Shown: one piece after another, positions 1 to 53,953 of the stretch
How the letters are laid out: each line of letters starts with the position of its first letter
Position numbering within the stretch: position 1 is the first letter of the stretch
NCBI GenBank assembly: GCA_023129325.1
Contig: JAGMCI010000012.1
Coordinates: 37,850 to 101,849, forward strand
Origin: a candidate division WOR-3 bacterium
Lineage (GTDB): Bacteria > Hydrothermota > UBA3073 > JACQXS01 > JAGMCI01
Reading direction: 5' to 3'
DNA: 64,000 nucleotides
Notes under the pieces: model-generated
What the model saw: the letters and a program-made list of their open reading frames with translations, nothing else
Databases searched by the model: none
What the model was told of the DNA's origin: nothing
Program-made: the position numbers and the translations under genes

Positions 1-1185
1 GACGAGGCTGAAATAAGGGGACATAGGAGGACTTATGTTGGTGCTTTGCCTGGCAGAATAATTCAAGGTATAAAGCGTGCTAATTCAAGAAATCCGGTTT
101 TTATGTTAGATGAGATTGATAAAATAGGGATGGATTTCAGGGGCGACCCGGCAGCTGCTTTACTTGAGGCACTTGACCCTGAACAAAACAAATATTTTTC
201 AGACCATTACTTAGATGTGGTGTTTGACCTTTCCAAAGTTATGTTTATAACTACAGCTAATGTAGTAGACCCAATTTTACCTGCTTTAAAGGACAGGATG
301 GAGATAATTAATCTTCCTGGTTATATTCTTGAAGAAAAGTTAAAGATAGCCAAAAACTTTTTAATTCCAAGACAGATAAAAGAGAATGGTTTGACCTCTG
401 AGCTTATCAGGTTCACGGATGGGGCTATTCGTGAGATTATTCAGGATTATACTCGTGAGGCTGGGGTAAGGAATGTTGAGCGTGAGATTGCTAATTGTGC
501 CAGGAAGGTTGCAAAAAGAATAGCGAAGAAAAGAAGTAAGAAGTTAGAAGTTAGAAGTGGGAAGTGGGAAATAACGAGGAATAGTGTATCAGAATTTCTT
601 GGACCTCCGAAGTTTTTTTCTGAAATAAGGGAGAAGGAAGGAGAAATCGGCGTAGCCACAGGTCTTGCTTACAGTCCTGATGGTGGAACGATTATATTTA
701 TTGAAGCAACAAAGATGAAGGGTAAGCATCAGCTTAATTTGACTGGGAAGTTAGGAGATATAATGAAAGAATCAGCTCAAGCTGGTCTTTCCTGGGTTCG
801 TTCAAAGGCAAGAAACTTAGGAATCAAGGAAGATTTTTTTGAGCATTATGACATTCACATTCATGTTCCAGAGGGTGCTATTCCAAAAGATGGCCCTTCA
901 GCAGGCATTGCCATAGTTACTGCTCTTGTCTCATTACTAAGGAACAAGAAAGTCAACGCAAGCATTGGTATGACAGGCGAGATTACATTGAGGGGCAAGA
1001 TTTTACCTGTAGGAGGGATAAGGGAGAAAGTAATAGCGGCAAAGCGAGCAGGGATTCAGACTATAATTTTACCTGACAAGAATCGCAAGGACCTCATTAA
1101 AATACCTTTCTATGTGAAGCGAGGGCTTAAATTCAAATTTGTAAAAGAGGTTGAAGAGGCTATAAATTTAGCAATAGAAGAATAA
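1..1185 (+). CDS. lon: ATP-dependent Lon protease, C-terminal part (5' end lies outside the window). An in-frame GGAAGT-type repeat at 536-570 adds [13 protein letters not shown].
   Basis: Frame 1 is open from nt 1. The translation contains ...[15 protein letters not shown]..., the P-loop-proximal region, and the catalytic-domain region DGPSAGIA...[19 protein letters not shown]. Confidence 0.9.
536..570 (+). repeat. GAAGTTAGAAGTTAGAAGTGGGAAGTGGGAA hexamer-type repeat, in-frame in lon.
   Basis: The same GGAAGTGGGAAG motif occurs at 3585-3610, 3661-3678 and 60584-60620. Each copy encodes a (G/R)KWEV(G) peptide. Confidence 0.7.
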
Positions 1186-1198
1186 AAAAGGTGAAATA

Positions 1199-1261
1199 CC
1201 TGCCTGCCCCACTCCGACAAGCGAAGCGGGACAGAGACGGCGAGGCAGGCAAGGTGGCAGG
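1199..1261 (+). repeat. GC-rich palindromic element, family A (51-bp core CCTGCCTGCCCCRCTCCGACAAGCGAAGCGGGACRGAGACGGCRAGGCAGG), intergenic copy.
   Basis: Near-identical copies at 3611-3661 (+), 12361-12411 (+) and 61216-61267 (-). GC content is far above the surrounding DNA. Confidence 0.85.
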
Positions 1262-1359: not shown

Positions 1360-2943
1360 ATGAAATGTTCTAAGTGTGGAAAAAATTTGCCAGAGGATGT
1401 TAAATATTGTGTTTATTGTGGTAAAGCCATACTTATGGAATGTCCGGGATGTGGCAAAACTATTCTAACTGATAGTGAGGTTTGTAAATTTTGTCAGCTT
1501 AATCTTACAGATTATAAAAAGGTCATCCAGCTCTTAAAATCCGGCAAGGAACTTGAATCCGCCTCAGGCGGATTCAAATATGAGGAAGCGAGAAAGATTT
1601 ATGAACGCGCTGCAAAATTAGGAGTAGCAAAAAATAAGGTATTTAAATTACTGAACGGAGCAACTCAAAAGCTCAGGATAATCAAAGCCAAGAAATTTGA
1701 TGCAGAGAATTTTTTAAGAGTCCGAAAATTAGGCTTAGCAAAAGAGTCTTTTCTTGAAGTTCAAAAACTGCTTCCCAAGGATGAGGAGATTGCTTTGAAA
1801 TTAGAACTTATTGAGTCCAGGATTAGAAGCAGGGCTATAAAAATAAGATGGGCAGTTATAATTATAATTCTTCTTGCAATAGGCGTGGGTTTTTATTCTT
1901 ATACAAATAGTCTCACATATTTAGCAAAGAGGGGACTTAAATCTCTTTTAAGAAGTGAAGAAACTGACATAAGACATTCAGCTATTTTGGTATTAGGTGA
2001 ACATGGTGAGCGAGCTGCCCGTCCATGGCTCGAAATGCTTGCAAATAGTGAGAATGAGCAAAAGAGAGTTTGTGCGCTCGTCAGTCTTTTAAACTTTGGC
2101 GAGACTGAAGCCTTACCTATTTTACTTGAAATAATGCGTAAAGGCAGTATTCAGGCAAGCATTGGAGCTGCGTGGGCTTTAGCGGCTACTATGGATAGAA
2201 CAATTGCTCCAGAGCTTGGTGTTTACTTGAAAGGGAAGAACGATGCCCTTAAAATATCATCTGCGACTATATTACTAAATCTTGGCTATTCCTCGGGCAT
2301 AGGGGTAATAGAAAAATCTTTAGAAAACAAAAAAACAGCAACACGATTTGAAGGATTATATGCTCTCTATTTACTTGGAAGCAAAGAAGCCCTTCAATTA
2401 TTTATACCCCAAGAGTCCGACTTACTCAGAAATTTACTTGAAGACCCAAATGACGAGATTAGGCTCCTTTCTGCACTTCTATTAAATCAATTTGAACCTA
2501 ACTTAGCTAAAGAAGACTCAGTTGCTATAGCACAGATATTATGGGGAGAATTTGCCAAGAGGGAGTATTCTGCAACGGAGATGGAAGAAATTTCTACCAC
2601 ACATCCATTTTATATTGCTAAAGAGATAATTAAAGACAAAGGTGATGAATCCATAATGGAATTCAGTCCTTCGGCAAGAGAAATAAGAAAAAGATGCATT
2701 GAGGATTTATCCAAAATTGAACTTGGAGACGAATCGGTCAGGAAAGAGCTTGAAAAATCATTAACTTCATCTGCCTCAGACGGAGATAAATATGAACGTC
2801 TTGAGGCAGCTTTGGTGTTATTCAAGTTTGACAAAAAAAGAGCTACCAGAGTTTTAAAAGAATTGATAAAGGATAAAGATGAACTCTTAAAATTAAACAC
2901 TTGTAAATTAACCCTTATGCTTAAGCAAATACTTCAAATATGA
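1360..2943 (+). CDS. Membrane protein with an N-terminal double zinc ribbon, one TM helix and C-terminal HEAT (PBS-lyase-like) repeats.
   Basis: Two CxxC pairs occur twice in the first 50 aa. Hydrophobic stretch WAVIIIILLAIGVGF. Repeated ...A(A/I)..LG..G...A.P.L...L.. HEAT-like units. RBS aggggg 8 nt upstream of the ATG. Confidence 0.6.
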   Translation: MKCSKCGKNLPEDVKYCVYCGKAILMECPGCGKTILTDSEVCKFCQLNLTDYKKVIQLLKSGKELESASGGFKYEEARKIYERAAKLGVAKNKVFKLLNGATQKLRIIKAKKFDAENFLRVRKLGLAKESFLEVQKLLPKDEEIALKLELIESRIRSRAIKIRWAVIIIILLAIGVGFYSYTNSLTYLAKRGLKSLLRSEETDIRHSAILVLGEHGERAARPWLEMLANSENEQKRVCALVSLLNFGETEALPILLEIMRKGSIQASIGAAWALAATMDRTIAPELGVYLKGKNDALKISSATILLNLGYSSGIGVIEKSLENKKTATRFEGLYALYLLGSKEALQLFIPQESDLLRNLLEDPNDEIRLLSALLLNQFEPNLAKEDSVAIAQILWGEFAKREYSATEMEEISTTHPFYIAKEIIKDKGDESIMEFSPSAREIRKRCIEDLSKIELGDESVRKELEKSLTSSASDGDKYERLEAALVLFKFDKKRATRVLKELIKDKDELLKLNTCKLTLMLKQILQI

Positions 2944-5900
2944 ATATGAAACAGGGTTTACTTAAACATCAACCGCACCTGCCCGACATCCTGCAGGCGG
3001 GGATGAACGCAGACACTAATTTAGACTACAGACTGAAGACTATAGACCAAAGACTGATAAAGAGAGGTCTTTTGTCTTTGGTCTTATGTCTCTATCCGTG
3101 GTTTTTAATGGCTCAAAACTTGCAAGTAAATCTATATTCAGGAAATTACAAGATTCAAGAACTGAAAGATAGTGAGCACCAGATACTTATGGAAAACCTG
3201 CCCGACGGTAAGGCGAGTGGGTTTGTGAACTCTTTAATTCCTGGCAAACCGATACTTCCAGCCAAAACATATATGATTGTTATACCACCAGGAGTAGAAA
3301 TTCAAAGAGTAGATATTCAGGGCAGGAAGGTTGAGCTACCAGGGAAATATAATATTAAACTATCTCCACCTATTTTCCCAATAATAAGTGGTGATGCAAT
3401 AGCAAGCTATTGCACTCCGGGAGTGCGTTATTTATATCCAAAAGAAGCAGGCAAATACATTGGAAGAGGTGGTTTAAGAAAATATGAGTTCATAAAAGTA
3501 GTTTTCTTTCCTTTTACCTATTGCCCCGAGACACGGAAATTATTTTATACCTCCACCATAACAGTATCTATAGATTATACTCCAGGAAGTGGAAAGTGGG
3601 AAGTGGGAAGCCTGCCTGCCCCGCTCCGACAAGCGAAGCGGGACGGAGACGGCAAGGCAGGTGGGAAGTGGGAGGATATTGCAAGGGATTTGCTTATAAA
3701 TTATAATGAAGCTCAAAAATGGTATAAACCTTTTGTTGAAGCAGAGGCTTCAACCTACCCTAATTATGATTATGTAATTATTACCACTCCTTTTTGCACT
3801 ACTGCTATTGACACTCTTATAAAATGGAAAAAAAGAATGGGTTATAAGACAAAAGTTGTTACCAAAGACTGGATAGATATCAGTTATCTTGGTAACGACA
3901 TACAACAGAAAATAAGGAATTTTTTGCGAGATAAATATCTTGATTGGGGGATAGAATATGTGCTTATAGTTGGTGATACTATAATCCCAATGCGAACATG
4001 CGTAACATTTAATAATGCACACGGTCCAGGAGGCTGGCCGCCTGGATGGTATACTATACCGACAGACTTATACTATGCAGAACTTACTTATCCTGATAGC
4101 TTATCGTGGAATCTTGACGGAGATAATTATTATGGTGAGGTATGGGAATGGGCAGGGGATACAATCATTCCTGAGGGTGATGATGCTCCTGATTATGTCA
4201 CAGATGTCAGACTTGGCAGGATTCCCTGGAGTGACCCGGCGAAAATCCGTCACATATGTGAAAAAATAGTTTCCTTTGAGCAAAATACAGACCCTTCTTA
4301 TAAAAAAGCCTCACTCCTTGCTGGAGGTATGATATTTTACGAAAACGAGGATAATTACTATCATAAATATGATGGTGCAGATATTATGGAAGCATTGATA
4401 GACAGTGGTATTGTAGAGCCATCGCTTGCTGTTACTTTGTATGAGAAAGCAGGTCTTAGACCAAGTTTATACCCATGCACAGCTCCTATTACAATGGATA
4501 ATATAATAAATTACTGGAATAATCGTGCCATCTTTTATGAATTTAACCATGGAGGAGTAGACAAATTTTTTAGTAGAATCTGGGCATCGGACGATGGCGA
4601 CAGTATTCCAGAATCAAGTGAAATAACAAGAAACTATTTACTATACTCCAGCTCTGCGCCACAACTTGATGATACTCATCCAGCAGTTGGATTCTTGATG
4701 TCATGCGATTGCGGGAAACCTGAGGATGGTAATAACCTTGGAGCTGCACTTTTAGAGAATGGGAGTGTAAGCATAGGAGCAGCAACACGGGCAGCATGGA
4801 CTTCTGGAGAGTGGATGGTATATTATTTTTTTAAAAACCTTTTAAGAGACACAAGCTTAACAGGTAGTAAAGTGGGAGATGCGTTTGATATGGCAAGAAT
4901 TGAATATATGCAACTTAACCCCTGGTGGCTTAATACCTATACTATCAATCTTTATGGTGAACCATCATTGAACCATTTTGGTATTACACTGAAACCTAAA
5001 CTTACAGTATTTCCTGATACACTCAATTTTGAAATCACTATGACAGAGAACAGGAAACAGAGAGCTGATTCAATATACTACCACTCAATCTACCAAGATT
5101 TAGATTGTTACTCCTACCAGTATGATAAAGCTAAAATTGCTACTCGTTTTACCCCTCTTCAAAATCCATGCTGGGTAACTGGGTGCGAAATATTTGTTAT
5201 GCCAAAAGATACAATGCCATCGATTCCAGATACTGTCTTTTTGTATGGTGCGGATAATGATACTACGCCTGGAGAAATTCTCTCCACCAAAACATGGAGC
5301 GCCCCAATTTATGCTCCTGATTTCTGGACAATAACCGTTTCTTTTGATTCCTCTTCCCTGCCCGACGGACGGCAGGCGGGTATGATAAGAAGTGGCGATT
5401 TCTGGATTGGATACAACAGTATCACTGATGGGATTAATAATATCTGTGTATGCTCTGATATGACAATTGATAGTAGTGGACAAAATAGAAATAGGTATAC
5501 CTTTGACGAGACCTGGGCTGGTATTGACTATGACTGGGGCATCACAGCATTTGTTGATTACAGAATACCTGAAGATACCGCCATATTGTGGATTAAAAAT
5601 GATGGAAATGATATTTTAAATGTCTCAAGCATTAATCCCGCACCATATGGTGCGGGACAAGACTGGGTTGTATCTATAACACCAATTTCATTCCAAGTAT
5701 CTAAAAAAGATTCTGAGGCAGTTACTGTAATTGTCAGTTCTAAAGGACTCGGCAAGGGTATCTATCATGACTCACTTAAGATTATCTCCAATGATTCTGA
5801 TAAAAATCCATATTATGAGCCTGTAAAGTTTGTAATTACTGATAGTCAAATTACACCCCCGCAGGTGTCTCAATTGCTTGATTCAATAATCCCAAACCCT

Positions 5901-6143
5901 ATTCAGCCTGGGAGCCAAATTATATATTGGCTTCCAAAATCAAGCTGGGTCACACTGAAAATCTATGACTCAATTGGCAGACTGGTGCGAGTTTTAATAG
6001 ATGAGTATGAACAAGTCGGACGGCATACTATTTCGTGGGATATGAGAAATTCATACGGCACCCGGCTCCCAAGCGGCGTTTATTTTTATAAATTAAAAAC
6101 ACTTAATAAAAGCTTAACAAAAAAACTTATTTTAATTCGTTAG
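2940..6143 (+). CDS. Peptidase C25 (gingipain-like cysteine protease) with propeptide domain and T9SS C-terminal sorting domain. It carries in-frame GC-rich repeat insertions. The true start is uncertain; the signal-like segment LLSLVLCLYPWFLMA lies ~40 aa in.
   Basis: Catalytic-domain region YDYVIITT...YVLIVGDTIIPMRTC. Paralogous to 53954-57532. C-terminus IYDSIGRLVRVLIDE...GVYFYKLKT is a Por_Secre_tail-type CTD. Repeat insertions lie at 2976-3003, 3585-3678, 3735-3760 and 5356-5380. Confidence 0.75.
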   Translation: MNMKQGLLKHQPHLPDILQAGMNADTNLDYRLKTIDQRLIKRGLLSLVLCLYPWFLMAQNLQVNLYSGNYKIQELKDSEHQILMENLPDGKASGFVNSLIPGKPILPAKTYMIVIPPGVEIQRVDIQGRKVELPGKYNIKLSPPIFPIISGDAIASYCTPGVRYLYPKEAGKYIGRGGLRKYEFIKVVFFPFTYCPETRKLFYTSTITVSIDYTPGSGKWEVGSLPAPLRQAKRDGDGKAGGKWEDIARDLLINYNEAQKWYKPFVEAEASTYPNYDYVIITTPFCTTAIDTLIKWKKRMGYKTKVVTKDWIDISYLGNDIQQKIRNFLRDKYLDWGIEYVLIVGDTIIPMRTCVTFNNAHGPGGWPPGWYTIPTDLYYAELTYPDSLSWNLDGDNYYGEVWEWAGDTIIPEGDDAPDYVTDVRLGRIPWSDPAKIRHICEKIVSFEQNTDPSYKKASLLAGGMIFYENEDNYYHKYDGADIMEALIDSGIVEPSLAVTLYEKAGLRPSLYPCTAPITMDNIINYWNNRAIFYEFNHGGVDKFFSRIWASDDGDSIPESSEITRNYLLYSSSAPQLDDTHPAVGFLMSCDCGKPEDGNNLGAALLENGSVSIGAATRAAWTSGEWMVYYFFKNLLRDTSLTGSKVGDAFDMARIEYMQLNPWWLNTYTINLYGEPSLNHFGITLKPKLTVFPDTLNFEITMTENRKQRADSIYYHSIYQDLDCYSYQYDKAKIATRFTPLQNPCWVTGCEIFVMPKDTMPSIPDTVFLYGADNDTTPGEILSTKTWSAPIYAPDFWTITVSFDSSSLPDGRQAGMIRSGDFWIGYNSITDGINNICVCSDMTIDSSGQNRNRYTFDETWAGIDYDWGITAFVDYRIPEDTAILWIKNDGNDILNVSSINPAPYGAGQDWVVSITPISFQVSKKDSEAVTVIVSSKGLGKGIYHDSLKIISNDSDKNPYYEPVKFVITDSQITPPQVSQLLDSIIPNPIQPGSQIIYWLPKSSWVTLKIYDSIGRLVRVLIDEYEQVGRHTISWDMRNSYGTRLPSGVYFYKLKTLNKSLTKKLILIR
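3585..3678 (+). repeat. Family A element inserted in-frame in the C25 peptidase, flanked by GTGGGAAGTGGGA direct repeats.
   Basis: …ggaagtggaaagtgggaagtgggaag-[51-bp element]-gtgggaagtgggagg… The reading frame is kept open and encodes SGKWEVGSLPAPLRQAKRDGDGKAGGKWE. Confidence 0.85.
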
Positions 6144-6155: not shown

Positions 6156-7412
6156 TTGATGAAAAGAAACATAGAAAGACACGCCTGCCTGACGGCAAGG
6201 CAGGGATATAGGCACGGAAAGATACACCCGCCTGCCCGCTTCGCCTGCCTCGCCCACGAGTCAAGGCGGGCCAAAGCTTCAGCGAGGCGAGCCATCTGTC
6301 GGGTAGGGAAATTTAATTCCTATCTTATTTTCTGGTCCATACGGATATTGGGAGTAATATTTTTAATCTTTCCTATCCGGATTTATGGAAATGAAAAACC
6401 CGATACTTCTTTATGGCACAAGTACGAAATTTTACCTAAAAAGGGATTGTTCAAAATAAAGAGAGAGTATTCATTTCCACTTCACGATATTCTTGGCAAG
6501 GAAAAAATTTATGCCCGATGCATTGCAGCTGCACCAATAGGAGGATTAAGAGAAGAAATTCAAATTTCACTTGTGAAAATCCCTTTAAAGAAAAAGATTA
6601 TCTTCCCTCTTGCTTTTGAAGAACTTCCTATTTCTGAATTGCAAAGAGAAAAGGAGCTTGAAATTTCAAAATCCGTAATTGAGGAGCAACAAGAACTCCC
6701 AAAACCAATAAAAATTGAAATTACACCGTTGGAAATAGAGAGACCTATAATTGCAGAAATCTCTCCACCAGCGAAAATAGAAACCAAGAAGATAAAAATA
6801 ACTGCTATTAAAGCCCTTGGAGTAATCAAAGAAGAAAGCTCAATTCCCCTTTTGAGAGAAGCTTTAAAAGAAAAAGAATGGAGTATAAAGCGTGAGGCTG
6901 CCGGGGCTTTAGCAGAACTTGGCGATACGATAGGACTTTCTTTTCTCAGGACAGCTCTTGAAGAGAAAGAAACAGCCAAGAAACTTGAAATCATAAGTAC
7001 TCTTGGAAGGATAGGAGATATTGCTTCAGTTCCGTTTTTAAGAAAATTGTTAGACCATAAGGAGTGGGCAGTAAGACGGGAAGCGGCTTTTGCCCTCTCG
7101 AAAATAGGAGACAAGACTGGTCTTTCATTCTTGCAAAGAGCAGTTGGTTCAGAAGACTCTAACAAAAAGATTGAGGCGGCGATGGCATTGGCAGAAATAG
7201 GAGATGACACTGGACTCCCGGAATTAATCTGTCAACTGACAGACAAGGATAGTCATACATCTGTGAGAATCGCGGCTCTTAAATCCATTGGAAAAGTAGG
7301 AAAAAAGAATATCATTCCTGTATTAAATGAGATAATGAAAAAAGACCCTGAACTCATAGTTAGAATTATAGCTTCAGAAAGTATATTAAAGATTAATAAA
7401 AGGAGGAAATAA
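6156..7412 (+). CDS. HEAT-repeat membrane protein, paralogue of the two flanking genes but without a zinc ribbon. The annotated 5' ~150 nt are a GC-rich repeat element, so the start is uncertain.
   Basis: TM-like ILGVIFLIFPI. C-terminal ~200 aa are tandem HEAT units (ALGVIKEESSIPLLREALKEKEWSIKREAAGALAELGD...). The first 50 codons translate the repeat element at 6183-6309. Confidence 0.55.
   Translation: MMKRNIERHACLTARQGYRHGKIHPPARFACLAHESRRAKASARRAICRVGKFNSYLIFWSIRILGVIFLIFPIRIYGNEKPDTSLWHKYEILPKKGLFKIKREYSFPLHDILGKEKIYARCIAAAPIGGLREEIQISLVKIPLKKKIIFPLAFEELPISELQREKELEISKSVIEEQQELPKPIKIEITPLEIERPIIAEISPPAKIETKKIKITAIKALGVIKEESSIPLLREALKEKEWSIKREAAGALAELGDTIGLSFLRTALEEKETAKKLEIISTLGRIGDIASVPFLRKLLDHKEWAVRREAAFALSKIGDKTGLSFLQRAVGSEDSNKKIEAAMALAEIGDDTGLPELICQLTDKDSHTSVRIAALKSIGKVGKKNIIPVLNEIMKKDPELIVRIIASESILKINKRRK
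6183..6309 (+). repeat. GC-rich element, family B, long form ~125 bp.
   Basis: The reverse complement of its 3' half matches 8214-8270 almost exactly (CCCTRCCCGACWGATGGCTCGCCTCGCTGAAGCTTTGGC…GGCGGG). A partial relative lies at 37544-37614. Confidence 0.8.
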
Positions 7413-8212
7413 TGAAATGTCCTTATTGTAAACACGAGATAGCCAATGATTGGTTATATTGTGGCAATTGTGGCATAAATATTAAAAAAGAAAATCAAGC
7501 AAAAAAAATCATCCAGTCGGGACTTGAATTTGAACATCAATTTGAGTATACAAAAGCTTCAAACGAATACAAAAAAGCACTTGAACTCGGTGTCCCTGAC
7601 AAAGAGATTCTTGAACTTCTTGAAAAAGTCACAAGGAAAGAACAAGCTATTATAAATTGGATGGAAAAAGGGAAGGAGTTCTTATCAAGTCGTGAATGGA
7701 AAGAAGCAATCCGAGCTTACGAAAATGTATTGAAACTAAAGCCCGTGGATGGTTATGTTAAAACAAATTTATTGCTTGCCAAAAGAAACCTTGCCCGTTC
7801 ACATAAACGTATCGGGATACGGATAACAGTTATTGTGATAATTATAGGTATAGGAACCTTTGGCTGGTATAGTTATACGCAAACTCCAAAACAAGTTGCT
7901 CAAAAGACATTGAAGCAAGGAGTTTTATCTCAAGACCTTCTTGCCAAACAATACGCAATTGAAGCTCTGGGCGGACTCAAGGACAAAAGATTTTTCCCTC
8001 TTTTGAAAGATGCTTTAAAGGATAAAAATCCTGCCATAAGAACTACTACAGCTAAAGCTCTTGGAGAATTTGGTGATTCTGCAGCTATTCCATTTTTAAA
8101 GGAGAGTTTATTTGATAAAGAATGGCAGGTAAGATATGCGGCAGCTCAGTCTTTGGCATTAATGGGGGACACTTCTGGAATCCAACTTTTAAAACAGGCA
8201 TTGAAAAGGTAA
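7412..8212 (+). CDS. Zinc-ribbon/TPR-like/TM/HEAT-repeat membrane protein.
   Basis: MKCPYCKHEI...YCGNCG zinc ribbon. TM segment ITVIVIIIGIGTFGWYSYT. Three HEAT units. The segment following its TM matches that of 1360-2943 (FYSYTNS / WYSYTQT), indicating paralogy. Confidence 0.6.
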   Translation: MKCPYCKHEIANDWLYCGNCGINIKKENQAKKIIQSGLEFEHQFEYTKASNEYKKALELGVPDKEILELLEKVTRKEQAIINWMEKGKEFLSSREWKEAIRAYENVLKLKPVDGYVKTNLLLAKRNLARSHKRIGIRITVIVIIIGIGTFGWYSYTQTPKQVAQKTLKQGVLSQDLLAKQYAIEALGGLKDKRFFPLLKDALKDKNPAIRTTTAKALGEFGDSAAIPFLKESLFDKEWQVRYAAAQSLALMGDTSGIQLLKQALKR

Positions 8213-8213
8213 T

Positions 8214-8270
8214 CCCTGCCCGACTGATGGCTCGCCTCGCTGAAGCTTTGGCGAAGCGGGCAGGCGGGCG
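8214..8270 (-). repeat. Family B element, short form, inverted relative to 6183-6309.
   Basis: Direct sequence comparison. Lies immediately after the stop of gene 7412-8212. Confidence 0.8.
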
Positions 8271-8298
8271 TCAGCTCATAGAGTCTGTAACTGACGGA

Positions 8299-8685
8299 TT
8301 AGATTTCTTCAAGTTCTCCTGGAGCACCAAAAAGAGATTCAATTTTTAAAGTGATAATCCTTCCCGTCCCCGTTTCTTCAAAGTTAATTCCAATCTCTTT
8401 CAAAAATTTCATTACCTCTTTGCCTGTATCCAGATTCTCGGTCACAGTCAGAACTGTCTTTGAATAGGCTCTTCCTTTTAAATCAAACCTTAAACCTGCA
8501 AATATTGGTACCTTATAAGCAAGTGCCTTCTCCATTGACTCAGAATCAATTGTAATTGCATCTTCTATCCCAAGTTCAACAAGACAGGAAAGGACATCAT
8601 CCAAATATTCCTCCTTATGCAAGATTATAATAAGTAAATACATAAGTCCCCCTATACAATTGTAAAATGCAAAAATTCTAAACAA
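8299..8685 (-). CDS. Small P-II-like (DUF190/nitrogen-regulatory-PII-fold-like) protein. An alternative start at 8643 is possible.
   Basis: ~110-aa core with an alternating beta/alpha pattern resembling P-II (LDDVLSCLVELGIEDAITIDSES...GRIITLKIESL). Lies last in the operon after the antiporter and the EIIA-like gene. Confidence 0.35.
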   Translation of the reverse strand: MFRIFAFYNCIGGLMYLLIIILHKEEYLDDVLSCLVELGIEDAITIDSESMEKALAYKVPIFAGLRFDLKGRAYSKTVLTVTENLDTGKEVMKFLKEIGINFEETGTGRIITLKIESLFGAPGELEEI

Positions 8686-9391: not shown

Positions 9392-10606
9392 TCATTTAAC
9401 TTTTATCTCTGCCTCTCCTGCATGCCGTATGGCAAAAACAGTAGCTAATGGTCCTATTATTTCATTTACCGCTATTGAAGCTAAAATAATATTTATCATC
9501 ATATCACCATATACTTTAAAGCCTGGATTTTCATAAGCAATAAGAACAAGCCCAATAGCCACACCTGCCTGGGGTAAGAGAGTAAGCCCAAGATATTTTT
9601 TTACTGCCACAGGTGCACCTGAGACAACGCCTCCAATAGAAGCTCCAGCAATCTTACCTACAGCTCTGGCAACTATAAATACCAGCCCTAAAAGTCCGAC
9701 CTTAATGAGTGTTCCTACTCTCAAATAAGTCCCTGAAAGAGCAAAAAAGGCAGCATAAAGTGGAGGCGTAAAATTATCTAAAACTGATATAAAACGCTGG
9801 TCTCTTTTTAAGCCATTTATAATTATAAAACCACTCACCATATTTGCAAGTAAGAGAGATAATTTTAAAAAAATAGCAATCCCACTTACAACACAAATTA
9901 TTCCTAAACTCATTATCAAAAATCCTGCCGCTGAACGTATATATCCTGATATAAGTCTCAACAGAAAACCAAAAGCTATTCCTAAAGCTAATGAACCCAC
10001 AATCTCAATAAAAGGAATACTGATTGCCTTTAAATGAGTTAAACTCCCTGAAGTAGATGAGAGAGCTGTGGCATTACATATTCCAAAGATAATAATAGCT
10101 AATGCATCATCAAGAGCCACTACTGCCAGAGCTGTGGTAGTCAAGGGTCCTTTTGCTTTTAATTCATTCATAACTGCAAGAGTCGCGGCTGGAGCAGTAG
10201 CAGTCCCTATTGCACCCATAACAAGAGCAAATGGAAGTATTGAGCCTTGAAAATTGACAATTTTTGATATATATGGAGAGAGTAAAAGGATACTGAAGGT
10301 AACAAAGACAAAGGCGCCAATCCCTTGAAGTAGAGTTATTAACAAAACATTTTTACCAAGTTTTCCAATCCTTTTTATGTCCAGGCTCCCTCCAATCGCA
10401 AAAGCAATAACTCCTAAAGCAATGTCCACAACCCAATTAAGTTCTTCTTCTAAAATTATCTTCGGAATAAGGTGAAAGCAGGATGGCCCAATTAAAATCC
10501 CAGCAATAATGTAGCCTGTGACTTCAGGAATCTTGACTTTTCTTGCTAATCTACCACCTAAATATCCAACTACAAGAAGTATGCCTATGGCGAAAACAAT
10601 GCTCAA
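9392..10606 (-). CDS. Cation:proton antiporter (Na+/H+ exchanger, CPA family).
   Basis: ~11-12 hydrophobic segments. N-terminal GYLGGRLARKVKIPEVTGYIIAGILIGP is characteristic of Na_H_exchanger family proteins. The start overlaps the purF stop (ATGA). Confidence 0.75.
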   Translation of the reverse strand: MSIVFAIGILLVVGYLGGRLARKVKIPEVTGYIIAGILIGPSCFHLIPKIILEEELNWVVDIALGVIAFAIGGSLDIKRIGKLGKNVLLITLLQGIGAFVFVTFSILLLSPYISKIVNFQGSILPFALVMGAIGTATAPAATLAVMNELKAKGPLTTTALAVVALDDALAIIIFGICNATALSSTSGSLTHLKAISIPFIEIVGSLALGIAFGFLLRLISGYIRSAAGFLIMSLGIICVVSGIAIFLKLSLLLANMVSGFIIINGLKRDQRFISVLDNFTPPLYAAFFALSGTYLRVGTLIKVGLLGLVFIVARAVGKIAGASIGGVVSGAPVAVKKYLGLTLLPQAGVAIGLVLIAYENPGFKVYGDMMINIILASIAVNEIIGPLATVFAIRHAGEAEIKVK

Positions 10607-12135
10607 CTCAGTCGTATCCTTTCCTTCTCAATTCTCTTTATTTCTTTAACTGGGATTTGGGTTGGATAATTACCCGTGAAACAGGCAGTGCAATAAGAAT
10701 TTTTTGCACTTCTGACTTCTGTATCACCAACAGCCCTTAACATACCTTCAAGAGATTGATAAATGAGTTCATCAACCCCAATTTGTGCCTTTATTTCAGA
10801 AATGCTCTTTTCTCGGGCTATAAAGTCTTGCTTCGTTTGCATATCAATCCCATAGAAACAAGGATATTTAAGGGGTGGACAGGATGAAATAAAATATATC
10901 TTCTTGGCACCCGCCTTCCTCACTAAAGATGTGATGGCTTTGGATGTGGTGCCACGAACAATAGAATCGTCTACTAATAATACCTTCTTTCCCTGTATTT
11001 CTTGTTTTACAGGATTAAGTTTGTACCTTACATATTCTAATCTCCTTTCGTCCCTTGGCATTATAAAAGTCCTGGCTACATACCTATTTTTTATAAGGCC
11101 CTCCCTGTAAGGAACACCAAGAGTATTGGCTAAAGATAAAGCAGTTGCCCTGGCTGTATCTGGCACAGGAATTACAACATCCGGTTTAAGACCAGACTTT
11201 TTTATCTTCTTAGCAAGCTCTTCGCCAAGTCTTAATCTGGTCTCATATACAGATACATTGTCAAGAACAGAATCAGGCCTTGCAAAATAAATATATTCAA
11301 AAATGCAATGCCTTGGACTCGGTGGCTTAATAACTTTTGAAATGACTTTCCCTTTAAGGTCTATAAGTATTGCCTCACCTGGATTTACATCCCTGATTTC
11401 ATCATAGCCAAGAGTGTCAAGAGCAACTGATTCAGATGCAAAACAAAAATTATTAAATTTGGACCCCTCAGCTGGGTAGGTTGAAAGGGACCCCCCAGTT
11501 GGGTAGGTTGAAGCCTCTGCTTCAACCTTGCATCCAAATTTTAAAGGCTTTATACCATGAGGGTCTCTAAAAGCAAGAAGTCCAATATTGGCAATGAAAG
11601 AGATGCAGGAATAACTTCCAGTTACTCTTTCCATCACTCTTTTAACAGCTTCAAAAACAGGTTTTTCCCCACCTATGGATGGAGCCCACATATTGGTCTC
11701 AAGTTCAGAAGCGAGAACATTTAAGATAATCTCAACATCACTTTTCGTATTTATGTGGCGATGTCGCTTATTCACAAGCCATTTCCTTAAACTCTCATAA
11801 TTTATGACATTCCCATTATGAGCTATGGCTATGCCAAAAGGAGTATTTGTATAAAAAGGTTGCGCATCCTCAGGGTCCCCAGCTCCAATTGTCGGATACC
11901 GAACATGACCAATCCCGATTGAACCCTTAAGTCGAGTCAGGTCTTGCGGATTAAAAAGGCTCTGGACAGTCCCTTTGCCTTTTTTTAAATAAAATCTACC
12001 ATCCTTATTCGCAGAATGCTGTGCATAAGTTATAATTCCAGCCGCATCCTGCCCCCTATGCTGTATAGCAATCAGCCCAAGCCAGAGCTTGGAAGCTACA
12101 TCACGCTCGCCAAATATCCCAATAACACCACACAT
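10603..12135 (-). CDS. purF: Amidophosphoribosyltransferase (glutamine PRPP amidotransferase). It contains an in-frame repeat insertion at 11470-11527.
   Basis: N-terminal MCGVIGIFG (Ntn cysteine). PRTase motif VLLVDDSIVRGTT. A C-terminal CxxC cluster is present. The inserted segment KVEAEASTYPTGGSLSTYPAEGS is encoded by a duplicated repeat element. Confidence 0.9.
   Translation of the reverse strand: MCGVIGIFGERDVASKLWLGLIAIQHRGQDAAGIITYAQHSANKDGRFYLKKGKGTVQSLFNPQDLTRLKGSIGIGHVRYPTIGAGDPEDAQPFYTNTPFGIAIAHNGNVINYESLRKWLVNKRHRHINTKSDVEIILNVLASELETNMWAPSIGGEKPVFEAVKRVMERVTGSYSCISFIANIGLLAFRDPHGIKPLKFGCKVEAEASTYPTGGSLSTYPAEGSKFNNFCFASESVALDTLGYDEIRDVNPGEAILIDLKGKVISKVIKPPSPRHCIFEYIYFARPDSVLDNVSVYETRLRLGEELAKKIKKSGLKPDVVIPVPDTARATALSLANTLGVPYREGLIKNRYVARTFIMPRDERRLEYVRYKLNPVKQEIQGKKVLLVDDSIVRGTTSKAITSLVRKAGAKKIYFISSCPPLKYPCFYGIDMQTKQDFIAREKSISEIKAQIGVDELIYQSLEGMLRAVGDTEVRSAKNSYCTACFTGNYPTQIPVKEIKRIEKERIRLS
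11470..11527 (-). repeat. Family G hairpin element (GGGTAGGTTGAAGCCTCTGCTTCAAC), duplicated and in-frame in purF.
   Basis: Perfect 8-bp stem GTTGAAGC/GCTTCAAC. Other copies at 3735-3760 (in C25, encodes EAEASTYP) and 37713-37738 (intergenic). Confidence 0.8.
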
Positions 12136-12360
12136 ATCAATTAAAATTTTACACTTCTTTTACCTGTTGTCAAGTTTTTTAGTATTTAAAGTTCAAAAAT
12201 ATGGAAAGTAACGATTGTATCGTTGTTTGCTTCGTTTTTTACTCCAAAGATTGCAGACTTTAGGATAAGGCTTTAGCCTTGCTAATGGATTGCTCAGTTT
12301 TGCTAATTAACCAATTAACTAATTCACCAATCAACTATTTTAACCCTCTGTGCCCTCCCT

Positions 12361-12411
12361 CCCTGCCTGCCCCGCTCCGATAAGCGAAGCGGGACGGAGA
12401 CGGCAAGGCAG
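12361..12411 (+). repeat. Family A element, intergenic, in the divergent purF / DUF218 promoter region.
   Basis: Same 51-bp consensus. Confidence 0.85.
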
Positions 12412-12464
12412 GTGTGGTTGTTTTTCTTGACTTTTAGGAGTTGATGATGTAAATTACTAAAATA

Positions 12465-13112: not shown

Positions 13113-13223
13113 AGAGACCGCACTCTTTTTAATTTAAAGTATCTCACACGAGTCCGTGACTTTAAGGCTTTGGAATGGAGTTAAGAAGGTTTTTAAATTT
13201 TTTTTAAAAATTGCGAAAAAAAC

Positions 13224-13251
13224 TTGACATTAATAAAACTGATGATAAAGT
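13224..13251 (+). promoter_or_regulatory. Sigma70-type promoter (TTGACA-16-TAAAGT) with an A-rich upstream element, serving the three-gene cassette.
   Basis: aaaaaaacTTGACAttaataaaactgatgaTAAAGT. The same aaaaaacTTGACA architecture recurs at 15278, 52266, 57716, 61117, 38728 and 12427. Confidence 0.45.
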
Positions 13252-13277: not shown

Positions 13278-13997
13278 ATGCCCTTAAAAACCCAAAAACT
13301 TGTACCCTCTAAAAAATTCCAGAGGGGATTTCAAATAGAAGCCATATATAATCTTGTAAAGCAGGACAAATATGATAGATATTCATACACTCAAAGACCT
13401 TCATATATGGATTCCAATCTTCCTTTGTTTGTGGCATCACCTGAAACTTCAGAGAAGGTATTTACATTTCTGGGTAAAACAGTAGGATTCCAATTTGGTG
13501 CTATTATTCTTAAGGAAGTCAGTGAGTATCTGACCAAGAAATATTCTCTTCCAGAAGTAAATCTTCTACGTATTAAAAAAGGAGAAATACAAAAATATAA
13601 AGATTTCCGTGGGCATTTAGAGAATTGCGACAAGAAAATGATTTCTTGGATAGTAAAATCTATCACCGAGGAGTTTGAAAGAACAACAAATAAGCTTTCT
13701 CTCCGTAAATTTGATGAATTCACACAATTTTGTAATATATGCAATGATTTTATTGAATGGTTTAAAGACATAAGAGCCCAAAGCTCCAAAGATGAAGTTC
13801 TTGCTGACACTTATTCCTTGTTACACAAGGTCACAAAACACTATAGCAGTAGACTTAATAAGAATAACCTAATACATTTTGGCTTTGCCGAGAAAGTTGA
13901 TTTTGTTTTAGAGAGTTATGAAATTTCTGAAAGCTGGAGTCCTCAGAGAAAAGAAATAAAATTTACTTCTACTAAAATATCATTTCAAGGTATATAA
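13278..13997 (+). CDS. Hypothetical protein, first gene of a three-gene cassette.
   Basis: 239-aa ORF with no motif I recognise. Promoter TTGACA-16-TAAAGT at 13224-13251. AT-rich codon usage. Confidence 0.4.
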   Translation: MPLKTQKLVPSKKFQRGFQIEAIYNLVKQDKYDRYSYTQRPSYMDSNLPLFVASPETSEKVFTFLGKTVGFQFGAIILKEVSEYLTKKYSLPEVNLLRIKKGEIQKYKDFRGHLENCDKKMISWIVKSITEEFERTTNKLSLRKFDEFTQFCNICNDFIEWFKDIRAQSSKDEVLADTYSLLHKVTKHYSSRLNKNNLIHFGFAEKVDFVLESYEISESWSPQRKEIKFTSTKISFQGI

Positions 13998-15190: not shown

Positions 15191-15419
15191 ACAAAAGTTA
15201 TCCTGAAACATTTTAACTTTTCTTTATTCTCACACAATCCAAAATTCAGCAGTTTTTATTAAATGTTGAAAAAAAACTTGACAAATAAAAAATTTGTGTT
15301 AAAATTACAAAAGGAGGTAATATAAGAGTCTTTTAAGGTATGTGAGTTTATGGAGTGCATTACCTTGGTAATGCAACTAAATTGACTTATATGCCTTATA
15401 AAGACTCTATTTTTATATT

Positions 15420-19436: not shown

Positions 19437-20822
19437 ATGCTTGAAGAAAAGATAAAGACAAAGCAAGCCAAAGTTTGCATAATTGGACTTGGTTATGTGG
19501 GGCTTCCACTGGCAATCCATTTTGCCAAAAATGGATTTAAAGTTTTGGGACTTGATATTAAAAAAGAACGAGTAAATCTTGTGAATCAGGGTAAAAGTTA
19601 TATTGAAGATGCATCAGAATTAGAGCTCAAAAAACTTGTAACCTCAAAGAGACTGAGTGCTACCTGGGACTATGCTAAAATCCCTGAATACGATGTAATC
19701 CAGATATGCGTTCCAACACCTGTAGATATTAATAAAGAACCCAATATTTCTTATTTAGTTGCTACTGCTGATGAAATTCAAAAAAGACTTCGTAAAGAAC
19801 AACTTATTATATTAAAAAGCACCAGTTTTCCAGAAACTACAGAAAATGTTCTCCTCCCAATACTTGAAAAATCAAGACTTTGTGCCAGAGGCACATCCCG
19901 ATTTGCATCGGGAAAAGTTGGTAAAGACTTTTATCTTGCTTTTTCACCTGAGAGAATAGACCCCGGGAACAAAAGGTTTACTACAGAAAATACTCCAACA
20001 GTTGTGGGAGGCATAACTCCGAAATGCACTAAACTTGCTACTCTTCTTTACAAGAGTGTTATAGATAAAGTGATTTCCGTTTCTTCCGCACGGGTGGCTG
20101 AAATGACAAAACTTCTTGAAAATACTTTTAGAAATGTAAACATAGCACTTGTAAATGAATTAGCTCAGTTATGTGAACGTATGAATATAAATATTTGGGA
20201 AGTAATAGATGCGGCGAAAACAAAACCATTTGGATTTATGCCATTTTATCCAGGACCAGGAGTTGGAGGACATTGTATTCCTATAGACCCTTATTATCTC
20301 TCCTGGAAAGCGCGTGAATATGATTTCCATACTTCATTTATAGAGCTATCTGCAAAAGTAAACGAATCAATGCCTTACTATGTGGCAAATAAAGTAATTG
20401 AAGCATTAAGCACGCAAGGGGTATGTCCATCAGCAGGAAAGATACTTATTTTAGGTGTCACATTTAAGCCTGATGTCAGAGACATTCGGGATTCACCTAT
20501 ATTAAAACTAATAAAAATTCTTGAACCACGCGTAAAAGAAATAATATATAATGACCCTTATATAAAAGAAATAGAAGTCCCTACAGGGACTGTCCCTCTG
20601 ACTTTAAAGGGACTGTCCCTATATAAGTCTAAGACATTAACTCAAAAACTATTAAAAAGCGTAGATTGCGTTATCATAGCCACCAACCACAAAGCCTATG
20701 ATTATCCCTGGCTTGTCCAGAACGCAAGTCTTATAGTAGACACCCGTAATGGCACAAAAGGCATTCCTGCCCGACGCCTCACGGGCGGGAAAGGAGGTAA
20801 TATAATAAGGCTTGGCTGTTAG
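19437..20822 (+). CDS. Nucleotide-sugar dehydrogenase (UDP-N-acetyl-D-mannosamine / UDP-glucose 6-dehydrogenase family). It has in-frame palindromic insertions at 20576-20620 and a GC-rich element at 20766-20789 in the C-terminus.
   Basis: IGLGYVGLP Rossmann motif. Catalytic region GFMPFYPGPGVGGHCIPID. C-terminal IPARRLTGGKGG is encoded by the GC-rich element. Confidence 0.8.
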   Translation: MLEEKIKTKQAKVCIIGLGYVGLPLAIHFAKNGFKVLGLDIKKERVNLVNQGKSYIEDASELELKKLVTSKRLSATWDYAKIPEYDVIQICVPTPVDINKEPNISYLVATADEIQKRLRKEQLIILKSTSFPETTENVLLPILEKSRLCARGTSRFASGKVGKDFYLAFSPERIDPGNKRFTTENTPTVVGGITPKCTKLATLLYKSVIDKVISVSSARVAEMTKLLENTFRNVNIALVNELAQLCERMNINIWEVIDAAKTKPFGFMPFYPGPGVGGHCIPIDPYYLSWKAREYDFHTSFIELSAKVNESMPYYVANKVIEALSTQGVCPSAGKILILGVTFKPDVRDIRDSPILKLIKILEPRVKEIIYNDPYIKEIEVPTGTVPLTLKGLSLYKSKTLTQKLLKSVDCVIIATNHKAYDYPWLVQNASLIVDTRNGTKGIPARRLTGGKGGNIIRLGC

Positions 20823-27992: not shown

Positions 27993-29497
27993 ATATCTTA
28001 ATGCTTAATCCACCGTTTTCTGGGATGAAGGGAAGGTTTTCAAGGGAACAGAGAAGTCCGGCAATTACTAAGAGTGGAACTTTATATTATCCTATGTGGT
28101 TAGCTTACGCTACAGGAGTATTAGAAAAAGAAGGATTCTCTGTTAAACTTGTTGATGCTCCCGCAAATGGACTTGAAATAAATGATGTAATTGAAATTGT
28201 TAAAGATTTTAAACCCTCGCTTATTGTGATTGATACCTCAACTCCAAGTATATATAATGATATTAAAATAGCAGAAAAACTGAAAGATATTCAACTCACA
28301 ACTCACAACTCACAACTCACAACTGTCCTTGTGGGTCCACATGTTTCTGCTACTGCCGATGAGACTTTAAAATTAAGTTCTCAAATTGATATTGTATGTA
28401 AAGGAGAATACGATTATACAATTAGAGAAATAGCAAGGAAAATTAAAAATCATCCCGCACTTATGCATAAGTGCGGGGTTGATAATATTAAAGGAATAAG
28501 CTGGCAAAAAGATGGTAAAATTATACATAACCCAGATAGGCCATTTATTGAGAACTTGGATGAAATACCATTTGTCTCCAAAGTATATAAAAAACATCTT
28601 GATTACACAAAATACTTTTATGCTCACTCCCAATATCCAATTGTAACAGTAGTTGGTGGGCGTGGCTGTCCACATAAATGTGTTTATTGTGTTTACCCTC
28701 AGACTTTTAGTGGTAGAAAATTGAGATACAGAAGTATTAAAAATGTAGTAGATGAAATGGAATATATTACTAAAGAATTTAAGGGAGTAAGAGAAATTAT
28801 GTTTGAAGACGATACTTTGACTGTAAATCGTGCAAGGTGTAAAGAATTTTGCAAAGAACTCCTTTCAAAGAATCTAAAGATAAGATGGTCCTGTAATTCA
28901 AGAGCAGATGTAGATTTTGAAACCCTTAAACTGATGAACCTTGCTGGTTGCAGGTTATTTTGTGTTGGCTTTGAGTCAGGTAATCAGCAAATTCTTGATA
29001 ATATGAAAAAGGGCATAAAACTTGAAACAATGAGACAATTTGTAAAAGACACAAAAAAAGTTGGAATACTTATTCATGGTTGTTTTTTAGTTGGAAATCC
29101 AGGTGAAACTAAAGAGACTATGGCACAAACTTTGAAATTTGCTAAAGAATTAAATCCTGATACTGCTCAATTTTTCCCTATAATGGTATACCCTGGAACA
29201 GAATTATATAAATGGACAAAGGAAAAAAACTATCTTGCAACTGAAGATTATTCTAAATGGCTTACCCCAGAGGGACTTCATAATTGTGTAGTTAATTTAC
29301 CAAACTTAAGTAGTAAAGAAATGGTAGAATTTTGCGCCCGAGCAAGAAAAGAATTTTATATGAGACCCTCTTATATCACAAAAAAGCTATCTCAAGCTCT
29401 AAAAAATCCAATGGAGGGTAAGAGAATTTCCAAATCATTTATAGTATTTGCAAAACATCTCATTCAAGGAAGTAAAAAAAGGAAAACAAAAAGATGA
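27989..29497 (+). CDS. B12-binding-domain radical SAM protein. It contains an in-frame 9-bp microsatellite at 28292-28325.
   Basis: N-terminal cobalamin-binding-like domain. CPHKCVYC (CxxxCxxC) radical-SAM cluster motif. The microsatellite encodes IQLTTHNSQLTTV. Confidence 0.75.
   Translation: MNILMLNPPFSGMKGRFSREQRSPAITKSGTLYYPMWLAYATGVLEKEGFSVKLVDAPANGLEINDVIEIVKDFKPSLIVIDTSTPSIYNDIKIAEKLKDIQLTTHNSQLTTVLVGPHVSATADETLKLSSQIDIVCKGEYDYTIREIARKIKNHPALMHKCGVDNIKGISWQKDGKIIHNPDRPFIENLDEIPFVSKVYKKHLDYTKYFYAHSQYPIVTVVGGRGCPHKCVYCVYPQTFSGRKLRYRSIKNVVDEMEYITKEFKGVREIMFEDDTLTVNRARCKEFCKELLSKNLKIRWSCNSRADVDFETLKLMNLAGCRLFCVGFESGNQQILDNMKKGIKLETMRQFVKDTKKVGILIHGCFLVGNPGETKETMAQTLKFAKELNPDTAQFFPIMVYPGTELYKWTKEKNYLATEDYSKWLTPEGLHNCVVNLPNLSSKEMVEFCARARKEFYMRPSYITKKLSQALKNPMEGKRISKSFIVFAKHLIQGSKKRKTKR
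28292..28325 (+). repeat. Tandem 9-bp microsatellite (CAACTCACA)x3.7 inside the radical-SAM CDS.
   Basis: Read directly: caactcacaactcacaactcacaactcacaactg. It is in-frame because the unit is 9 bp. Confidence 0.9.
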
Positions 29498-37683: not shown

Positions 37684-37995
37684 GCTATTTTTTATATATA
37701 GCTTTAATCATAGGGTAGGTTGAAACCTCTGCTTCAACTCTCATAATTTGTAATCTGTAATTCAGAATTTATAATTTTTAACTTCCTGCTTTCTACCTTC
37801 TGTGTTCTCCGCAAACTCTGCGGTTCAGGTCATCTTTGGAGTGCAAAAACGGTGCTCTTGTAAAAAGATTGTGGGCACGCCTGTCGTCAACAACGGGGAT
37901 TTCAAATCGTGCAAATGTAACAATGCTACAACCACAGACCTTGCCTTGCTAAAAATCAATGTAGGGCAAACCTTTAGGTTTGCGGAATGCAGACT

Positions 37996-53860: not shown

Positions 53861-53953
53861 TTTAAACAACTAAACTTAAGTGTAAAATACTTATTGCCAA
53901 GCACTGTGGAAATCCAGAGTTGACAGTGTTTGGGGATAAGAAAGGAGGTTGAG

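Follow-up and report, generated by a model that had tools for sequence, protein, structure and literature searches.

How does a strongly GC-rich palindrome of 51 nucleotides (nt) come to lie in-frame within the gene of a C25-family cysteine peptidase, and does it behave there as the Rickettsia palindromic elements (RPEs) do? This question is raised by a stretch of 64,000 nt (contig JAGMCI010000012.1, positions 37,850 to 101,849), hereafter the window, of a metagenome-assembled genome (MAG) from a candidate division WOR-3 bacterium (GCA_023129325.1). The element in question, which we call family A, is present in the window in four copies:

3611-3661, plus strand: family A, CCTGCCTGCCCCGCTCCGACAAGCGAAGCGGGACGGAGACGGCAAGGCAGG, in-frame in the C25 peptidase gene; an imperfect palindrome of 73% GC.
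1199-1249, plus strand: family A, intergenic, 3' of lon.
12362-12412, plus strand: family A, intergenic.
61217-61267, minus strand: family A, within a plus-strand gene for a protein of 420 amino acids (aa).

All together, the data presented below make it probable that we are dealing with a selfish palindromic repeat, small and non-autonomous, of a WOR-3 lineage, one that resembles the RPEs in its behaviour and inserts without target-site duplication (TSD).

The original prediction on this DNA had listed four near-identical copies of 51 bp, and these are confirmed, with coordinates correct to within 1 nt. Pairwise identity among them is 44-50 of 51 positions. Their GC content of 71-75% stands out from the window, whose background amounts to 36.3% (about 38% in local 2-kb blocks) and not to the roughly 33% that had been proposed. 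A search allowing up to three mismatches recovered the three plus-strand copies, against an expectation of 0.00 over 100 shuffles, and an nhmmer profile run over the window returned exactly these four copies and zero diverged ones. The element ends in terminal inverted repeats of 10-11 nt (CCTGCCTGCC / GGCAAGGCAGG).

The copy at 3611-3661 is carried by the following gene:

2940-6143, plus strand: C25-family cysteine peptidase with a C-terminal sorting domain of the type IX secretion system (T9SS); intact open reading frame (ORF), NCBI MCK4352390.1.

The encoded protein is identical to MCK4352390.1 (candidate division WOR-3 bacterium), which lies on a metagenomic scaffold of 374,764 bp, and the identical protein was found on three contig records. 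Its Peptidase_C25 domain spans residues 278-678 (Pfam), and two dipeptides, His-Gly at 537-538 and Ser-Cys at 588-589, do not vary in the alignment of homologues; by analogy with the gingipains, we take them to be the catalytic pair. As had been anticipated, the element leaves the frame open and contributes 17 aa, LPAPLRQAKRDGDGKAG, at residues 225-241. The same alignment shows that this segment is missing from all C25 homologues, including the paralogue encoded at 53930-57532 of the window, the closest homologue being only 49% identical. An ancestral stretch of protein, which the original prediction had named as the alternative to an insertion, is therefore not what the homologues indicate. 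The insertion site falls between the propeptide-like and the catalytic domains. In an AlphaFold2 model of the whole protein (mean predicted local distance difference test score 56), residues 216-273 all score below 50 and lie between better-predicted domains, so that the model supports no more than a low-confidence linker, as a putative permissive site.

A second coding copy, in the opposite orientation, lies in the gene listed here:

61151-62413, plus strand: host gene for the 420-aa protein, GTG start, function not assigned.

Specifically, positions 61217-61267 are exactly codons 23-39 of this gene and encode the peptide PACPSPSHFACRSGAGR. Homologues, retrieved from a set of 1.84 billion representative proteins and aligned, share the N-terminus MQRLLAKVI..; one of them has MQRLLAEVIKIRK.. 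where the present protein reads V/MQRALTKVIKVEK.., and all of them lack exactly PACPSPSHFACRSGAGR. No direct repeat flanks the copy. On the strength of this alignment, we consider the 61217 copy a genuine in-frame insertion, read antisense. It had been predicted to be open in the minus-strand frames, and it is, as are all six frames, but no minus-strand gene is supported there and the reading actually used is the antisense one of a plus-strand gene. The alternative of a 5' untranslated region, with a promoter-like site and translation from ATG 61340, was rejected because the homologues share the upstream residues and lack only the 17 aa. That promoter-like site, an 11-of-12 sigma-70-like match at 61117-61144, stops 7 nt short of the GTG at 61151. 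As the homologues favour this GTG as the real start codon, the mRNA may be leaderless or nearly so. A recurrent motif, AAAAAAACTTGACA, marks putative promoters also at 12146-12173 (minus strand), 13199-13231, 15253-15285 and 52231-52263.

The DNA of this MAG that we examined amounts to about 103 kb and includes the window and a contig with ribosomal protein genes (L007). Had the element been unique to the window, the original prediction would have lost its ground; family A is not confined to it, however, being found on L007 and on six metagenome contigs of the Joint Genome Institute (JGI). The six JGI contigs, of about 40% GC, carry the family A core, and one of them (L001) holds a second copy. 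On another (L005), the rpsH gene for ribosomal protein S8 reads YKFESD[LPAPLRQAKRDGAGKAS]SKQG; the insert is 51 nt long and is open in the frame used in C25, its 17 residues are missing from all S8 homologues, and the two proteins have the peptide LPAPLRQAKRDG in common. The S8 of the MAG itself (MCK4352897.1, encoded on L007, in the accession series of the C25 protein) measures 151 aa compared to the usual ~128 and differs at two places. In the loop that holds the element of L005 it has a heptamer array, GAAGTAG GAAGTGG GAAGTGG GAAGTAG, coding for VGSGKWEVGS. The next loop contains a family A variant of 54 nt in a third frame, RLPHSDKRSETEQDIRQ, whose 18 aa are missing from the homologues. 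At this second place the nearest MAG (GCA_030018315.1) has the empty site AAA CCA GCC CCT GTA, and the filled site of the present MAG is AAA CCA GCC[54 nt]TCT GTA. The two S8 proteins are about 72% identical, while their elements are about 94% identical.

Thus, the MAG DNA examined contains five copies of family A, three of which are coding (two of the four in the window), and real genes use the element in three frames and in both orientations; the predicted insert-derived peptides include LPAPLRQAKRDGDGK, PACPSPSHFACR and RLPHSDKR. These findings show that family A is carried by at least two distinct organisms, in both orientations and in coding as well as intergenic DNA. In addition, the homologues of C25, of S8 and of the 420-aa protein, all without the segment, support an insertion over an ancestral sequence, as far as alignments can tell.

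Wider searches delimited the distribution of the element. A 25-nt core pattern gave no match among 185,579 GTDB species representatives, and no family A match was found in the IMG/VR viral contigs. A looser 22-nt pattern of the 5' arm matched once in GTDB, in a GC-rich proteobacterium, with divergence directly after the pattern, and was discarded as a chance hit. A search of a set of 5.8 billion proteins with the six frames joined produced 75 word-sharing candidates, none with an E value of 10 or below, the peptides being too short for the tool.

The same observations bear on the possibility that the segments are native protein sequence or artefacts of metagenome assembly. The genome is indeed a MAG, and repeats may misassemble. 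Nevertheless, the same DNA is found also between genes, the host ORFs are intact with homology on both sides of the inserts, the C25 protein recurs unchanged on its three contig records and rpsH holds the element in a JGI assembly made independently; we regard this explanation as hardly conceivable.

We then come to the junctions. The original prediction had held that the C25 copy is bracketed by a direct repeat, GTGGGAAGTGGGA, as expected for a TSD. The repeat is present, with a length of 13 nt, at 3596-3608 and 3661-3673, but it belongs to a tandem array of heptamers:

3585-3610, plus strand: left part of a (GGAAGTG)n array, coding for GSGKWEVGS.
3662-3677, plus strand: right part of the (GGAAGTG)n array, which had been taken as the right copy of the TSD.

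Both copies of GTGGGAAGTGGGA are parts of this 7-nt array, and they are placed asymmetrically, the left one ending 2 nt before the element and the right one overlapping its last base. When 3611-3661 is deleted, GGAAG joins TG and six in-phase GGAAGTG units (42 nt, GSGKWEVGSGKWED) are obtained. Arrays of the same type occur without any element in lon (531-570, ..SGKWEI..), in the gene of a T9SS protein (60587-60618, ..SRKWEVGSGK..) and at six sites of contig L007, including the EF-G gene. Furthermore, empty-site comparisons at three loci show that the extra DNA equals the palindrome in length (51 nt in rpsH of L005, 54 nt in rpsH of L007, 51 nt in the 61217 gene), and no flanking repeat was found at any of the three. 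The other copies have no matching flanks either, except those lying inside arrays. Since excision leaves an in-phase array and the three empty-site loci are without a repeat, these comparisons argue that the TSD is refuted and that the C25 flanks are a tandem array; as read from the aligned sites, the DNA added is the palindrome alone, 51 or 54 nt, with no duplication.

These junctions also decide how much room is left for a classical miniature inverted-repeat transposable element (MITE), that is, for terminal inverted repeats mobilised by a DDE transposase that generates a TSD. Family A has the inverted ends of such an element, its C25 copy lies between 13-nt direct repeats, and around the 1199 copy a repeat matching at 9 of 10 positions (AGGTGAAATA / AGGTGAGATA) can be drawn, provided that the element is taken to include an extension of 9 nt. 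However, the C25 flanks are an array of a kind that also occurs without the element, the inserts at the empty-site loci consist of the palindrome with no repeat and the remaining copies lack matching flanks, so that the fixed-length TSD of a classical MITE is not found; a MITE is, in our opinion, a very improbable source of family A.

The intergenic copies are informative in a different respect. The copy at 1199-1249 had been tied to the lon gene, but it starts 14 nt past the lon stop codon and is thus outside lon; on its 3' side follow a partial repeat of its own 3' arm (to 1261) and heptamer arrays (1272-1340). The copy at 12362-12412, which has a TAA in the reading frame used in C25, sits between two divergent promoter-like sites and is probably untranscribed, giving no hint of an RNA-level function.

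A folding of the element had been suggested as a check, and its outcome depends on the molecule considered. As single-stranded DNA, the bare copy 3611-3661 folds with -15.1 kcal/mol (z = -3.8), a stability reached by 0 of 200 shuffles, and for both strands the bare family A gives values of about -15 to -16 kcal/mol. By contrast, RNA folds that include the flanks cannot be told apart from those of shuffles (z from -0.4 to -1.8), so that only the bare element as DNA stands out. The loop includes GCGAAGC, a sequence that forms an unusually stable mini-hairpin. The openness of the element in every frame is a by-product of its GC richness: at the composition of the element, 38% of random 51-mers are stop-free in all six frames, compared to 0.015% at the composition of the genome. 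A search of the window against Rfam gave 0 matches at the gathering score, and its E-value mode returned hairpin noise only (19 bits at most, against cut-offs of at least 40). A role of family A as terminator was rejected, as every copy is without a T tract.

By combining these data, one can assess the hypothesis of a cis element serving the host, such as a DNA hairpin that binds a protein, or an attenuator or stabiliser acting in RNA, as has been proposed for some repetitive extragenic palindromic (REP) sequences and bacterial interspersed mosaic elements, whose copies in genes would be incidental. This is compatible with the position of two window copies between genes, near gene ends or promoter-like sites, with the strong conservation across lineages whose S8 is ~72% identical and with the loop GCGAAGC, mentioned above. 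On the other hand, the copies occur in both orientations, without T tract and without Rfam match; the 12362 copy, between its divergent promoter-like sites, is probably not transcribed; of the five copies in the MAG, three are coding, that in S8 included; and function alone leaves the spread unexplained. Therefore, we consider a host-serving element unlikely.

The selfish palindromic repeat that we favour has to be compared with known systems. RPEs measure 105-146 bp and are restricted to Rickettsia (PMC2229807); in their first report they were found in-frame within 19 protein genes, and their TSD is uncertain, being listed as '?' (PMC2229807, PMC10969869). In-frame palindromes had been called the hallmark of RPEs, but they are not confined to Rickettsia: in-frame fusions are on record for ERIC, for the 107-bp Correia form and for YPAL as well (PMC2229807). 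Like RPE-1 to RPE-10 (Ogata et al. 2000, 2002), family A is dispersed as palindromes that are intergenic as well as in-frame in conserved genes, and the two have in common a recurrent peptide without gene inactivation, several families per genome and a mobilising mechanism that is not established. They differ in that family A is 51-54 nt long, has 71-75% GC in a genome of 36% GC and resides in a WOR-3 host with a T9SS, whereas RPEs inhabit an alphaproteobacterium with an obligate intracellular life and do not differ much from their host by a higher GC content; moreover, family A is read in at least three frames and in both orientations and is tied to heptamer arrays. The RPE-like behaviour that had been proposed, a dispersed hairpin found in-frame in real genes, is hence an apt description, by analogy, while size and taxon place family A outside the RPE families.

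REP and REPIN sequences are short hairpin repeats with conserved ends, organised in several families and lacking a TSD, and the associated RAYT proteins are IS200/IS605-like Y1 transposases (PMC3116915). Family A resembles them as a hairpin, as a short imperfect palindrome with several families and no TSD, and in a sequence conservation for which an enzyme acting in trans on single-stranded hairpins is a plausible cause. By definition, REPs lie outside genes, and a REP family adjoins its RAYT gene, whereas more than half of the family A copies are in genes. REPs are typically preceded by GTAG. The 5' flanks of the family A copies (..AAATA, ..GGAAG, ..CCCTC, ..ATTTC, ..TCAAA, ..TCCGA) contain no GTAG, and no RAYT was found in the Pfam-screened part of the MAG.

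Two further systems deserve mention. In heterocystous cyanobacteria, Elhai et al. in 2008 (Genome Res) reportedly described small dispersed repeats (SDRs), mobile palindromes of ~21-27 nt inserted precisely, also within genes and other repeats, and these genomes are said to be rich in heptameric short tandemly repeated repetitive sequences (STRR) as well. The smaller relatives of family A described below, families B and C (24 and 30 nt), are of the size that SDRs are said to have; the phylum and the sequences differ. The GC clusters of yeast mitochondrial DNA (PMC8811140, PMC4464245) are likewise GC-rich mobile palindromes in a very AT-rich genome. They are organellar and follow flanking-sequence conventions of their own, and the likeness implies no kinship. 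Some yeast mitochondrial GC clusters are tolerated in-frame in the ribosomal protein gene var1. When the literature was searched for WOR-3 in combination with palindromic repeats, CRISPR and virus-related papers alone came up. We regard an in-frame palindromic repeat that is much smaller than RPEs, GC-rich and TSD-less as new for this phylum, from which none is known to have been described.

If family A is a selfish repeat of this kind, its mode of spread could be as follows. A trans-acting enzyme might recognise the hairpin that the single strand folds into, much as in IS200/IS605 elements or REP-RAYT pairs, a conjecture suggested by the clean TSD-less junctions together with the stable single-strand hairpin. 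The heptamer arrays may serve as preferred targets. A length divisible by three and a stop-free GC-rich sequence would allow genes to survive the insertion, which is partly borne out by the copies described; a copy in a gene would add a hydrophilic loop of 17-18 aa, rich in Gly, Pro and Arg, and would not destroy the protein. Selection would then keep only the copies at permissive places, here presumably the C25 linker between the propeptide-like and catalytic domains, a stretch near the N-terminus of the 420-aa protein and loops of S8. Because an element identity of ~94% beside an S8 identity of ~72% is unlike unconstrained vertical inheritance, family A would seem to be maintained by a sequence-specific agent or to have been transferred horizontally in recent times.

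Several points weigh against this explanation. We infer mobility from the distribution of the copies, and no transposase or RAYT-like gene is among the Pfam matches listed for ~75 kb of the MAG, a screen that left ~16-44 kb of the window outside. RNAalifold, applied to nine copies, found no compensatory pairs, the copies being too alike to inform. At the C25 site, where homologues have a conserved stretch of 18 residues (D..K..E..RL.SDNL.E), the present protein has GSGKWEVGS, the 17 aa of the element and GKWE (a 14-aa heptamer-coded stretch plus the 17-aa element), and the alignment presents this site as a replacement plus an insertion, not as a clean insertion. Finally, the C25 locus taken alone would still be compatible with a duplication of 7 or 14 nt within the array.

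It is at this point that a spread with no dedicated transposase has to be weighed, in which hairpins and tandem arrays would give rise to recombination, gene conversion or template switching during replication. The missing TSD, the in-phase position of the C25 copy and of one L001 copy within heptamer arrays and the several sites that are replacements rather than clean insertions are all in its favour. In addition, of the 17 hairpin elements considered in the window, 5 have a heptamer array no more than 60 nt away, versus 1.3 expected (P ~0.004); as three of the five are in one gene and not independent, this association is only suggestive. Nonetheless, the insertions in S8 and in the 420-aa protein are clean and without local homology, and without a sequence-specific agent the same element would be hard to keep across an S8 identity of ~72%. 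It appears to us that such a route, too, has little probability.

Family A is not isolated, being one of several GC-rich hairpin families with CC(T/C)GCC...GGC(A/G)GG ends. When base composition is allowed for, no hexamer is more over-represented than CCTGCC/GGCAGG (47 observed, 8 expected). The sibling elements located, and a different palindrome, GTTGAAGCAGAGGCTTCAACCTACCC, are the following:

2978-3001, plus strand: 24-nt element of family B, CCTGCCCGAC-N-GGCGGG, in the 5'-terminal part of the C25 ORF.
5357-5380: family B, in C25, peptide LPDGRQAG.
20766-20789 and 30610-30633: family B.
30162-30191, plus strand: family C (30 nt, CCTGCCCGCCGCTCCGCTT..GCAGGCGGG), within a family-2 glycosyltransferase ORF.
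3735-3760, plus strand: palindrome GTTGAAGCAGAGGCTTCAACCTACCC, VEAEASTYP in C25.
11501-11526, minus strand: palindrome GTTGAAGCAGAGGCTTCAACCTACCC, VEAEASTYP in a PurF-like amidophosphoribosyltransferase.
37711-37738, minus strand: palindrome GTTGAAGCAGAGGCTTCAACCTACCC, intergenic.

Siblings of 21, 24 and 30 nt lie within ORFs that have clear Pfam domains, among them those of C25 (LPDGRQAG), a UDP-glucose dehydrogenase, a family-2 glycosyltransferase, a hexapeptide transferase and an outer-membrane efflux protein. The family B copy at 5357 matches a 7-aa gap in the sole homologue that spans the region. Family C occurs also in ribosomal protein L6 on L007. In the C25 protein, residues 1 to ~40, which precede a signal-peptide-like stretch, consist of a family B hairpin and two heptamer arrays (2940-3100), and the true start codon is uncertain because the called N-terminus is built of repeats.

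To what extent core genes are affected was evaluated by comparing 21 ribosomal-operon genes of this MAG with those of the nearest MAG, GCA_030018315.1, at 59-87% aa identity. Repeat-derived extras are present in this MAG only: S8 has gained 5 and 18 aa, L6 8 aa, L29 45 aa and adenylate kinase 35 aa, while S5, L15 and L30 have C-terminal extensions. Specifically, the extra residues of L29 correspond to several small GC-rich hairpins (L007 7990-8334), those of L6 to a 30-nt CCTGCCCGCC..GGCGGG element (L007 10637-10683), and those of adenylate kinase hold a hairpin, C(TTCG)G, together with a tandem repeat of 27 nt (L007 14308-14433). GCA_030018315.1 has far fewer GC islands and heptamer arrays.

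These data allow a broader and more speculative proposal, which we hold to be possible but doubtful: the hairpin families and the (GAAGTGG)n-type arrays may be two products, or the target and the payload, of one new TSD-less insertion machinery. If this were true, a joint machinery, active in a presumably free-living WOR-3 lineage, would write new peptide loops into essential proteins (S8, L6, L29, EF-G, adenylate kinase, Lon and C25), would keep a 51-nt substrate ~94% identical across lineages with ~72% S8 identity, and would be distinct from MITEs derived from insertion sequences and from the known REP-RAYT pairs.

To our knowledge, a pervasive in-frame invasion of protein genes by palindromes has been treated as near-unique to Rickettsia, an intracellular parasite under relaxed selection. 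Our data point to the same behaviour in an uncultivated, T9SS-bearing and presumably free-living WOR-3 bacterium, with an element of about one-third to one-half of the RPE length that reaches ribosomal protein genes and leaves clean TSD-less junctions. The movement of such elements, and the reasons for which proteins put up with them, could thus be studied in a second and independent system. From a practical point of view, repeat-derived segments in the annotation of such MAGs can distort alignments, ribosomal-protein phylogenies and domain boundaries. It is also possible that tandem arrays of 7 nt and small hairpin repeats are linked in their mechanism; we know of no explanation for the similar pairing of arrays and hairpins in heterocystous cyanobacteria.

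Some additional features of the repeats were recorded. Tandem arrays of 7 nt with many different units are abundant in this genome, and were located in the window at 531-570, 3023-3091, 28292-28324, 53590-53615 and 60587-60723, and on L007 at 605-639, 8535-8562, 9774-9794, 10154-10181, 11823-11864 and 13877-13904. Arrays of the (GAAGTGG/GAAGTAG)n type give GKWEVGS-type peptides in Lon, C25, the T9SS protein, S8 and the C-terminus of S5, and one is also located within the EF-G gene. C25 and the PurF-like protein, which have the VEAEASTYP peptide of the GTTGAAGCAGAGGCTTCAACCTACCC palindrome in common, are unrelated enzymes. In the PurF-like protein, the palindrome adjoins a 27-nt tandem repeat (11461-11512), and the two make up an insert of ~20 aa just before the conserved ASES motif.

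Composite arrangements were observed as well. On L001 (JGI Ga0114921_10017016), two inverted family A copies, at 116-166 (plus strand) and 816-867 (minus strand), bracket a single small gene, and the latter copy is in phase within an AT-rich heptamer array. On L003 (JGI Ga0315280_10135290), direct repeats of ~140 nt (70-215 and 1277-1410) flank a gene for a 346-aa protein and have the core CCCCGCTCCGACAAGCGAAGCGGGACGGAG embedded in them; in the left repeat the family A core is interrupted by a nested 33-nt hairpin insertion. An integron attC site was considered for these ~140-nt repeats, in which no GTTRRRY core was noticed. The hairpin GGGGCAGGGTTTATCCCTGCCC at 60990-61015, downstream of the T9SS gene, is built on GGCAGG/CCTGCC as well, and its sequence is similar to that with which the L003 repeat begins, GCAGGGGTTTATCCTCTGC. 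Lastly, an inverted GC-rich pair in the window (6227-6309 and 8213-8279), with 40-nt arms that are 95% complementary (6270-6309 / 8213-8252), brackets the zinc-ribbon/HEAT-repeat genes 6156-7412 and 7412-8212, its left copy falling within the called N-terminus of the first gene, and a fragment related to this element, TGCCTCGCCTACGAGTCAAGGCGGG, begins the contig L001 of another organism.

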